Source of the DNA: Escherichia coli
GTDB lineage: Bacteria > Pseudomonadota > Gammaproteobacteria > Enterobacterales > Enterobacteriaceae
Length of the DNA stretch: 64,000 nt
Strand: one strand, 5' to 3'
NCBI RefSeq assembly: GCF_001677475.2
Contig: NZ_CP015229.1
Numbering within the stretch: position 1 is the stretch's first letter; each line of letters opens with the position of its first letter. Below the pieces are notes generated by a model. It worked only from the letters and a program-made list of their open reading frames with translations, searched no databases and was not told the DNA's origin. The translations under genes were made by a program, and so were the position numbers. Positions 51,289 to 54,294 of this stretch are shown in pieces.

Positions 51289-52629
51289 TTAACTCAACAG
51301 CTGGAAAGCAATCATCCCAACGATGGCACCGACAGTGCCGAGGATGGTTTCCATCATGGTCCAGGTTTTCAGTGTTTCGGCTTCAGTCGCGCCGGTAAAT
51401 TTACCGAACAACCAGAAACCGGCGTCGTTAACGTGGCTGACAACAATCGAACCACCGGCGATACAAATCGACAGCGCCGCCATTTGCGCACCGGAGTAGT
51501 TCAGTTGTTCAATAACCGGCATCACCAGTCCCACCGCCGTTAAACAGGCAACGGTGGCAGAACCCTGAATGATGCGCACTGCAGCTGCCAGCACGAAGCA
51601 GGTGATGGCAATCGGCAGGCCCATGCCGGTTAACGCTTCGCCCAGTGCCGGACCTACGCCAGAGTCAACCAGCACCTGTTTGAACACGCCGCCTGCACCA
51701 ATCACCAGCAGAATGATCCCCGCCGGTTGCAGCGCGTGACCACAAATTTCCATCACTTTGTCTTTTGGCATGCCCTGACGCATTGCCAGGCCATAAATTG
51801 CTACCAGACAAGCAACCAGAATCGCAGTAAACGGATGACCGATAAACTCAAACCATTCGTAAGCAGTTGATCCTTCTGGTACAAAACGCGCGGCAATGGT
51901 TTTAAGCCCTACCAGTACCAGCGGCAGCAGGATCAGCGACAGGCTAAATCCGAAAGATGGCATTTTGCCTTCACCGAGATGCGGTTCGCTGATGTCGTCA
52001 GGAATATGCAGCTCAACGTAACGGCTGATGAAGTTACCCCACAGCGGCCCGGCAATAATCATTCCCGGAATTGCCGCACACAGGCCAATCAGGATCATCC
52101 AGCCAAAATCGGCGTTCATCTGCGATGCCAGCAGCATTGGCGCAGGTCCAGGCACCAGGAATGCCGCCGCTGCCGCCACGCCTGCGAATAATGGGATTAC
52201 AAGCTTCACCAGGTTCGTACCGGTGTGGCGCGCCATTGAGAAAGCAACGCTAATCAGCAGAACAATCGCCACTTCAAAGAACAGCGGTAGTGCACAGACC
52301 AGCCCCGCAAGGCCGATGGCATAATGCGCGCGGCTGTGACCGAAGGATTTGAGCATTTTGACGGCAATCTGATCGACTGCGCCGGTTTCATGTAAGATCT
52401 TGCCAAACATAGCTCCCAGGGCGACAACCACCGCCAGGAAGCCGAGGGTGCCTCCCATCCCTTTTTCCATCGTCGCTGCGATTTTATCGAGCGGCATACC
52501 GGAAAAAAGGCCAGCCCCCATGGACACCACCATTAAAGCCAGGAAAGCGTGCATACGCGCCTTCATGACTAAAAACAGCAGCAGTAAAACAGACCCTACT
52601 GCTGTTAAAACAAGCGTTAATGTAGTCAC
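51289..52629 (-). CDS. gntU: Low-affinity gluconate transporter GntU (GntP family)
   Basis: 446-aa ORF, paralogous to gntT in this window, downstream of gntK. Confidence 0.93.
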   Translation of the reverse strand: MTTLTLVLTAVGSVLLLLFLVMKARMHAFLALMVVSMGAGLFSGMPLDKIAATMEKGMGGTLGFLAVVVALGAMFGKILHETGAVDQIAVKMLKSFGHSRAHYAIGLAGLVCALPLFFEVAIVLLISVAFSMARHTGTNLVKLVIPLFAGVAAAAAFLVPGPAPMLLASQMNADFGWMILIGLCAAIPGMIIAGPLWGNFISRYVELHIPDDISEPHLGEGKMPSFGFSLSLILLPLVLVGLKTIAARFVPEGSTAYEWFEFIGHPFTAILVACLVAIYGLAMRQGMPKDKVMEICGHALQPAGIILLVIGAGGVFKQVLVDSGVGPALGEALTGMGLPIAITCFVLAAAVRIIQGSATVACLTAVGLVMPVIEQLNYSGAQMAALSICIAGGSIVVSHVNDAGFWLFGKFTGATEAETLKTWTMMETILGTVGAIVGMIAFQLLS

Positions 52630-52632
52630 TAC

Positions 52633-53160
52633 TTATTTGCCTTTTTTAATAACCTCGATGGTGCTTGCCACAACACCTTCCAGCGGTTGATCGATATCCA
52701 CCACCAGTACATCGGTTTCGTCCGCACCCGGCTCCTGCAGCGTTTCAAACTGCGTCACCAACATTTGGGTTTTAAAGAAATGGCCTTTGCGCGCTTTCAG
52801 GCGGCTTTCAATCACATCAAAATCGCCTTTCAGGTAGATGAACGAGAGATTCGGATTACCTTCACGCAGCAAGTCGCGATAGTGTTTTTTCAGTGCAGAA
52901 CAGACGATCAGCGACACTTTATTGGTGCGCTGCATAGCAAACGCGGCGTCGTTCAGCGCCTGCAACCACGGTTTGCGATCGTCGTCATTCAGCGGTTCAC
53001 CAGACGCCATTTTTTCGATATTGCGCCGTGGATGGAGGAAATCGCCATCAAGAAACGCGGCATGAAGTTGATGCGCCACTTCACTGGCGACCGCAGATTT
53101 GCCGCTGCCCGATACGCCCATCAGAACGTAAATGTGGTGATCATGGTTAGTCGTGCTCAA
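52633..53160 (-). CDS. gntK: Gluconokinase GntK
   Basis: Track ORF 52633..53181; start is a TTG at 53158-53160 giving 175 aa (xSTTNHDHHIYVLMGVSGSGKS, P-loop). Confidence 0.92.
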   Translation of the reverse strand: MSTTNHDHHIYVLMGVSGSGKSAVASEVAHQLHAAFLDGDFLHPRRNIEKMASGEPLNDDDRKPWLQALNDAAFAMQRTNKVSLIVCSALKKHYRDLLREGNPNLSFIYLKGDFDVIESRLKARKGHFFKTQMLVTQFETLQEPGADETDVLVVDIDQPLEGVVASTIEVIKKGK

Positions 53161-53190
53161 AGTGGTGCCCCCACAATACAAGAATTAAAA

Positions 53191-53220
53191 ATGTTACGGG
53201 TAACTGTTATCGGTAACATT
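53191..53220. promoter_or_regulatory. Tandem GntR operator-like sites in the gntKU promoter
   Basis: ATGTTACGGGTAACTGTTATCGGTAACAT, two overlapping ATGTTA-N4-TAACAT-type sites 30-60 bp upstream of the gntK TTG start. Confidence 0.6.
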
Positions 53221-53298
53221 GTCCAGCCGGACAATATCAGAAGCAATATCCATCCGTGCCTTAAGTGTATAAGTGTGAGCTACTTCAAATTTGTAGGC

Positions 53299-54294
53299 TT
53301 AAATAGATCCGCCCGGTGACAAGGTGAAACCTAAATCTAACATTTTCGGTGTCACAGATTCGCCACGAATACGCGCCAGCAGGCGTTCAGCGCCAATACT
53401 GCCCATCCGCTCACGCGGCGTCAGTACGCTCGCCAACCGTGGTTCCATCACCTGACCAATGTCATGACCATGGAAACCGGCAATCGCCATATCGTCAGGA
53501 ACTTTCAACCCCAGACGCTGGCATTCAAACGCCGCGCCGACTGCCAGGTCATCATTAGTACAGAACACGCCATCCAGCTGCGGATATTCCCGCCTCGCCT
53601 GGCGAATCAGTTCAATACCGGAAGAGTAAGAAGAAGATTGCTCAACCATCACGCTATATGGCACCAGGCCTGCATCCAGCATCGCCTGTTCGTATCCCTT
53701 CTGTTTGATGATAGTACGTTCGTCGAGACGTGCGCCGAGATAGGCAATGTGGCGATGCCCGCGAGCAATAATGGCGGTGGTCATCTGCCGTGCCGCTTCA
53801 AAGTTATCAAAACCGACGGCGATATCGAGGCACGGCGACTGGCTGTCCATCAACTCCACCACCGGGATCCCCGCCACTTCAATCATCTTTAAGGTGCGCG
53901 GCGTGTGGGTACGTTCGGTGAGGATCAGTCCGTCGATATTCCATGAGAGCATTGATTCGAGGCGTTCTTGCTCCATTTCCGGTTTATAACCGTAGTGGGC
54001 CAGCATGGTCTGATAACCGTGCGCGTCGGTGACGCTTTCGATTCCGCGTAATACTTCCGCGAAAACCTGGTTGGTGAGAGAAGGTAACAGGACGCCAATC
54101 GCCCGGCTGGTGGCGTTAGAGAGGATATCGGGCGCACGATTGGGAATATAGCCCAGTTCATCAAGAGCGGCGGCAATCTTGCCGCGTAGAGCGACGGAAA
54201 CCTGCTCCGGGTTGCGTAAAAAACGGCTGACCGTCATTTTGGTCACGCCTACACGGTCAGCCACATCCTGAAGTACGGGTCTTTTCTTTTTCAT
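53299..54294 (-). CDS. gntR: GntR, LacI-family gluconate repressor
   Basis: 331-aa ORF; N-terminal LacI-type HTH (VLQDVADRVGVTKMTVSR). Confidence 0.95.
   Translation of the reverse strand: MKKKRPVLQDVADRVGVTKMTVSRFLRNPEQVSVALRGKIAAALDELGYIPNRAPDILSNATSRAIGVLLPSLTNQVFAEVLRGIESVTDAHGYQTMLAHYGYKPEMEQERLESMLSWNIDGLILTERTHTPRTLKMIEVAGIPVVELMDSQSPCLDIAVGFDNFEAARQMTTAIIARGHRHIAYLGARLDERTIIKQKGYEQAMLDAGLVPYSVMVEQSSSYSSGIELIRQARREYPQLDGVFCTNDDLAVGAAFECQRLGLKVPDDMAIAGFHGHDIGQVMEPRLASVLTPRERMGSIGAERLLARIRGESVTPKMLDLGFTLSPGGSI

Follow-up and report, generated by a model that had tools for sequence, protein, structure and literature searches.

Where does translation of gntK begin? This gene, which specifies thermoresistant gluconokinase in the gntR-gntK-gntU locus, lies on the minus strand of the window, the 64,000-nt stretch of E. 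coli DNA that was analyzed, and the first ATG in its frame (53121-53119) directly precedes the P-loop peptide GVSGSGKS. Upstream of the P-loop, the frame reads TAA, TTC, TTG (53181-53179), TAT TGT GGG GGC ACC ACT, and TTG (53160-53158). The last of these codons appears as CAA on the plus strand at 53158-53160 and is followed by AGC ACG ACT AAC CAT GAT CAC CAC, which encodes S T T N H D H H. A codon walk found neither ATG nor GTG between the upstream TAA and codon 14 of this frame. The original prediction had named the TTG at 53158-53160 as the only in-frame start giving the 175-aa kinase, with an N terminus of xSTTNHDHH followed soon after by GVSGSGKS and with an upstream in-frame extension (MYCGGTT) that also lacks an ATG. 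Each of these readings of the sequence was correct: both peptides lie where they were placed, and the TTG at 53181 yields M-YCGGTT. The features of the frame are as follows.

53185..53187, minus strand: in-frame TAA that closes the gntK frame upstream (codon walk).
53179..53181, minus strand: upstream in-frame TTG, the 182-aa alternative, unsupported as a start (no Shine-Dalgarno sequence; extension not conserved).
53168..53172, minus strand: Shine-Dalgarno-like G-run GGGGG at -12 to -8 (anti-Shine-Dalgarno duplex, -8.4 kcal/mol).
53158..53160, minus strand: TTG, very probable initiation codon of gntK (codon 1), predicted to be decoded as fMet; annotated in K-12 and by PGAP, with TTG or ATG at the homologous codon in relatives.
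52633..53160, minus strand: gntK coding sequence (CDS), 528 nt, comprising 175 codons plus TAA (52635-52633); identity to 1KNQ and 372 bits against NF008583.
53119..53121, minus strand: first in-frame ATG (codon 14), from which the historical 162-aa ORF_f162 was called; very probably not the real start (no Shine-Dalgarno sequence).
53095..53118, minus strand: Walker A P-loop GVSGSGKS, codons 15 to 22 (codon walk; anchor of the cross-species scan).

Seven candidate codons were scored against the 3′ end of 16S rRNA, and anti-Shine-Dalgarno complementarity was found only at the 53160 TTG. The duplex there has an energy of -8.4 kcal/mol, which places it among the top 1.5% of minus-strand windows of 20 nt, and its spacing of ~6 to 7 nt lies inside the 5- to 9-nt range used as the criterion. 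The upstream TTG at 53181 and the first ATG at 53121 each scored +0.6 kcal/mol, which amounts to no pairing. The G-rich block is conserved in orthologs, and the G at -10 is invariant among 34 TTG-bearing orthologs. Also invariant in 34/34 of these orthologs are AGCAC at +4 to +8, which includes the synonymous third base of Ser2, and a C at -2 (window positions 53153-53162, minus strand). Synonymous sites nearby do vary among the same orthologs. The invariant AGCAC and C at -2 may reflect a constraint on start context. When folded, the gntK leader plus start region showed no significant structure (z = -0.15). A 4-bp GUGG/CCAC hairpin (53161-53173, minus strand) that could sequester part of the Shine-Dalgarno sequence in the E. 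coli leader was considered as a regulatory element and rejected; it is probably incidental, since most relatives lack the CCAC arm.

The protein read from the 53160 TTG was then compared with known gluconokinases. The 175-aa product is 100% identical to residues 1 to 175 of crystallized E. coli gluconate kinase (PDB entry 1KNQ) and scores 372.3 bits against NF008583, the NCBIfam gluconokinase equivalog model (cut-off, 265), so the open reading frame is not a chance occurrence. The 1KNQ sequence derives from a recombinant construct, so it does not independently prove the native GntK N terminus. Scores were 241.5 bits for TIGR01313, the GntK/IdnK subfamily model (cut-off, 113.75), and 183.9 bits for the IdnK model NF007336, which is below its cut-off of 304. 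The profile score, a Walker A motif (GxxxxGK[ST]), identity to a characterized member of the family, and the gntR-gntK-gntU context all indicate a GntK-type gluconokinase. The NF008583 alignment starts at residue 8 of the 182-aa open reading frame, which corresponds to the 53160 TTG. The TIGR01313 alignment starts 3 residues before Met14, so a protein started at the ATG would be cut inside the conserved domain. The alignment to PDB entry 3T61 likewise starts before Met14.

To compare the start region across species, one genome per species was searched for DNA that could encode the P-loop peptide MGVSGSGKSAVA, by means of a degenerate pattern. The scan was blind to the start codon and returned at least 120 loci, with Salmonella among those left out. 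Among the matches listed, TTG stood 13 codons upstream of the P-loop Met in 34/34 distinct core Enterobacteriaceae sequences, from Escherichia, Citrobacter, Enterobacter, Klebsiella, Kluyvera, Kosakonia, Leclercia, Lelliottia, Pluralibacter, Phytobacter, Pseudocitrobacter, Pseudescherichia, Silvania, and Superficieibacter. The homologous codon was ATG in seven other Enterobacteriaceae among these matches (Cedecea, Shimwellia, Mangrovibacter, Tenebrionibacter, Entomohabitans, Trabulsiella, and one "Enterobacter sp."), as it was in all sampled Erwiniaceae, Hafniaceae, and Morganellaceae orthologs listed that keep the 13-codon N terminus. In-frame pairwise identity ranged from 0.07 to 0.37 across codons -10 to -1, rose to 1.00 at codons +1 and +2, and remained mostly high beyond that point (0.54 to 1.00 through codon +15). 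In several relatives, an in-frame stop lies only 5 to 7 codons upstream of the start. These stops, together with identity of no more than 0.37 upstream, rule out a conserved N-terminal extension. The in-frame 53160 TTG marks the 5′ edge of the conserved coding region, and the frame offers no ATG or GTG from which the domain would be kept whole.

The reference annotations place the start at this codon as well. The 528-nt CDSs of K-12 MG1655 b3437 (NP_417894.2) and of the PGAP protein WP_000108330.1 both open with the same TTG. Anti-Shine-Dalgarno pairing, curated annotation, the position of ATG in orthologs, the conservation boundary, and the family profile are five independent lines of evidence that agree on the 53160 TTG as the start, and they bear out the original prediction on this point. 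We therefore conclude with high confidence that the TTG at 53160-53158 (minus strand) is where translation of gntK starts. In the mechanism that we propose, the G-rich Shine-Dalgarno element 7 to 8 nt upstream of this codon would position the 30S subunit, and initiator tRNA would read UUG as fMet to give the 175-aa protein MSTTNHDHHIYVLMGVSGSGKS....

In published reporter measurements, UUG was placed with AUG and GUG in the class of codons giving 10 to 100% of AUG activity, and UUG accounts for about 3% of E. coli starts (10.1101/063800). A 2024 paper, which does not treat gntK, quotes an 8- to 12-fold decrease and describes adaptive non-ATG starts in regulators of sugar utilization (PMC11445065). 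The expectation in the original prediction that non-ATG starts are less efficient fits the published reporter data as a general rule. For gntK itself, UUG probably lowers the initiation rate relative to AUG, and the strong Shine-Dalgarno sequence may partly offset this effect.

How the TTG arose was examined with a neighbor-joining protein tree. The tree was built from 170 aa, which limits its resolution, and it placed all ATG-bearing sequences outside a single TTG clade, except for Trabulsiella, which was nested inside. Since the ATG sequences otherwise lie outside this clade, we take ATG as the ancestral state, replaced once by TTG and apparently restored in one case. On this history, ATG changed to TTG once, at the base of the Escherichia-Citrobacter-Enterobacter-Klebsiella-Kluyvera clade, and TTG has been kept since, save for the apparent reversion in Trabulsiella. 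Trabulsiella odontotermitis is the only sequence inside the TTG clade with an ATG gntK start.

An alternative is that TTG is actively maintained, holding GntK synthesis at a tuned lower level with the strength of the Shine-Dalgarno sequence co-adjusted. Several observations point in this direction. TTG is invariant in 34/34 diverged orthologs, and across these sequences only 1/52 four-fold degenerate sites is invariant (mean pairwise identity, 0.55). TTG is also fixed in E. coli: of 5423 complete E. coli genomes, 5387 carry the exact 55-nt stretch from -22 to +33, and versions of it with ATG or GTG in place of TTG had no exact match in any genome. In addition, the adaptive non-ATG starts in sugar utilization regulators provide a published precedent (PMC11445065). 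However, a change from TTG to ATG or GTG requires a transversion, and 10/52 four-fold sites (0.19) lack a transversion across the same genomes. The invariance of TTG alone is therefore not significant, and as proof of selection for TTG it fails on this transversion-aware null. The apparent reversion to ATG in the Trabulsiella lineage also argues against active maintenance.

The leaders were compared in the same way. Median anti-Shine-Dalgarno pairing was -8.4 kcal/mol for TTG leaders versus -6.1 kcal/mol for ATG leaders, a comparison that ignores phylogeny. In Mann-Whitney tests, which likewise ignore phylogeny, the difference gave P = 0.008 against the Enterobacteriaceae ATG leaders and P = 0.0016 against all ATG leaders. 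The stronger Shine-Dalgarno sequences of TTG leaders look like compensation, but the leader sequences are only suggestive on this point. Considering both sides, we regard active maintenance of TTG as possible but unlikely. A related proposal is that the replacement of ATG by TTG in the ancestor of the core Enterobacteriaceae was itself adaptive, such that a weak start and a strengthened Shine-Dalgarno sequence set the dosage of GntK or the GntK:GntU ratio and an ATG would be costly on gluconate or in the gut. This proposal is doubtful. If it were true, the role of non-ATG starts would extend from sugar regulators to a catabolic enzyme operon.

Public databases hold three forms of the protein. 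Exact-sequence lookup found the 175-aa form (GNTK_ECOLI) on at least 1,000 contigs; a 162-aa form that begins with the first ATG, "ORF_f162 [Escherichia coli str. K-12 substr. MG1655]," on about 998; and a 182-aa form, from some O157:H7 annotations, on 25. The contig counts of the 162- and 182-aa forms indicate that miscalled gntK starts are still widespread in automatic annotation. The original 162-aa reading, a protein beginning MGVSGSGKS at 53121-53119, has in its favor that this codon is the sole ATG near the 5′ end of gntK and that its exact sequence is so widely deposited. Nevertheless, the ATG has no anti-Shine-Dalgarno complementarity. Across genera, the peptide encoded by the 13 codons upstream of it is conserved despite variation at their synonymous positions, and orthologs that start with ATG have it 13 codons upstream. 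The K-12 protein record, now at version 2, has 175 aa. The 162-aa form would also lose the hydrophobic stretch before the P-loop, given that the TIGR01313 and 3T61 alignments begin before Met14. Initiation of gntK at the first ATG is thus very improbable, although, judging from the sequence, minor internal initiation may occur there. Initiation at the upstream TTG (53181-53179), which would give a 182-aa protein (MYCGGTTLSTTN...), can be dismissed almost entirely: the frame is open from 53184, this TTG is the first NTG after the stop, and the form is present in a few O157:H7 annotations, but the codon has no Shine-Dalgarno sequence, the seven additional residues lack conservation even among Enterobacteriaceae (identity, 0.10 to 0.37), several relatives have an in-frame stop between the equivalent position and the real start, and NF008583 aligns only from residue 8.

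The TTG start of gntK is already known: our assignment agrees with a correction made earlier by curators and, being present in the curated reference annotation, is not new. Its practical value is annotation hygiene, in that the comparative evidence settles which of the 162-, 175-, and 182-aa forms is correct. With this start, gntK joins the UUG-initiated genes of E. coli, which make up roughly 3% of the total. In the TRAINSPOTTER and INRI-seq supplements (N-terminomics and initiation profiling), neither gntK nor b3437 is listed, as expected because the operon is repressed without gluconate. A full-text literature search for the start codon, N terminus, or transcription start of gntK found nothing that bears on the E. 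coli gene. GntK was reportedly purified by Izu et al. in 1996 (FEBS Lett), and that work may report an N-terminal sequence.

The surroundings of gntK contain further candidate control elements, as follows.

53299..54294, minus strand: gntR, the upstream neighbor, with an ATG start (open reading frames and RefSeq annotation).
53274..53289, minus strand: CRP-site-like TTTGA-N6-TCACA just after the gntR stop (by eye against the TGTGA-N6-TCACA consensus).
53191..53219, minus strand: two overlapping GntR-operator-like palindromes, ATGTTACCGATAACAG and CAGTTACCCGTAACAT, in the gntK leader/promoter region (sequence read).
51289..52629, minus strand: gntU, the downstream neighbor, with a GTG start (open reading frames and RefSeq annotation).

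The two palindromes sit 31 to 59 nt upstream of the TTG. From knowledge of the gnt regulon, we take ATGTTACCGATAACAG and CAGTTACCCGTAACAT to be predicted GntR operators. The core GTTACCCGTAACA recurs upstream of gntK in nearly all sampled Enterobacteriaceae leaders, at varying distances from the start codon. The TTTGA-N6-TCACA sequence (53289-53274) is a candidate CRP site. A simple scan found no sigma-70 consensus promoter on the gntK strand, and the promoter, CRP, and operator assignments accordingly rest on inspection and prior knowledge.

Downstream, the GTG of gntU (52629-52627) follows 3 nt after the gntK TAA (52635-52633) and has weak anti-Shine-Dalgarno pairing (-3.2 kcal/mol). With a TTG for gntK and a GTG for gntU, both genes of the operon start at near-cognate codons. 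Two aspects are mildly notable: neither gene of the gntKU operon starts with ATG, and the TTG has been retained since it arose in one ancestral switch. Translation of gntU may depend on coupling to that of gntK. Within the first ~20 codons of gntU (52579-52604, minus strand) lies a terminator-like hairpin with an 11-bp stem (-16.4 kcal/mol) followed by a U-run. The hairpin is a candidate intraoperon attenuator that could lower gntU expression relative to that of gntK. An attenuator at the gntK-gntU junction has reportedly been described.

Three known systems bear comparison with the gntK start. The sugar utilization regulators of PMC11445065 resemble gntK in having a near-cognate start codon in a sugar utilization gene that is kept across genera. 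They differ in being regulators, for which a fitness effect was shown experimentally; gntK is an enzyme gene. The ATG-initiated gntK genes of other Enterobacterales (for example, Cedecea davisae, Shimwellia, Erwinia, Pantoea, Photorhabdus, and Proteus) encode the same domain and begin at the equivalent codon, 13 upstream of the P-loop Met. These ATG-initiated orthologs carry a Shine-Dalgarno-like element 4 to 8 nt upstream, but their anti-Shine-Dalgarno pairing is weaker on average (median, -6.1 kcal/mol). The remaining system is gntK of E. coli K-12 (b3437; NP_417894.2; GNTK_ECOLI; 1KNQ), which likewise opens with this TTG and has the same gntR-gntK-gntU order. The window does not come from K-12; for positions 52600-53330, the best identity among 5426 complete E. 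coli genomes was 99.0% over 731 nt. K-12 MG1655 differs from the window by 12 nucleotides in 688 nt (2 upstream and 10 in the CDS), and the leader is the same over its last 95 nt. The 175-aa GntK proteins are identical, and the differences in the CDS are therefore all silent.
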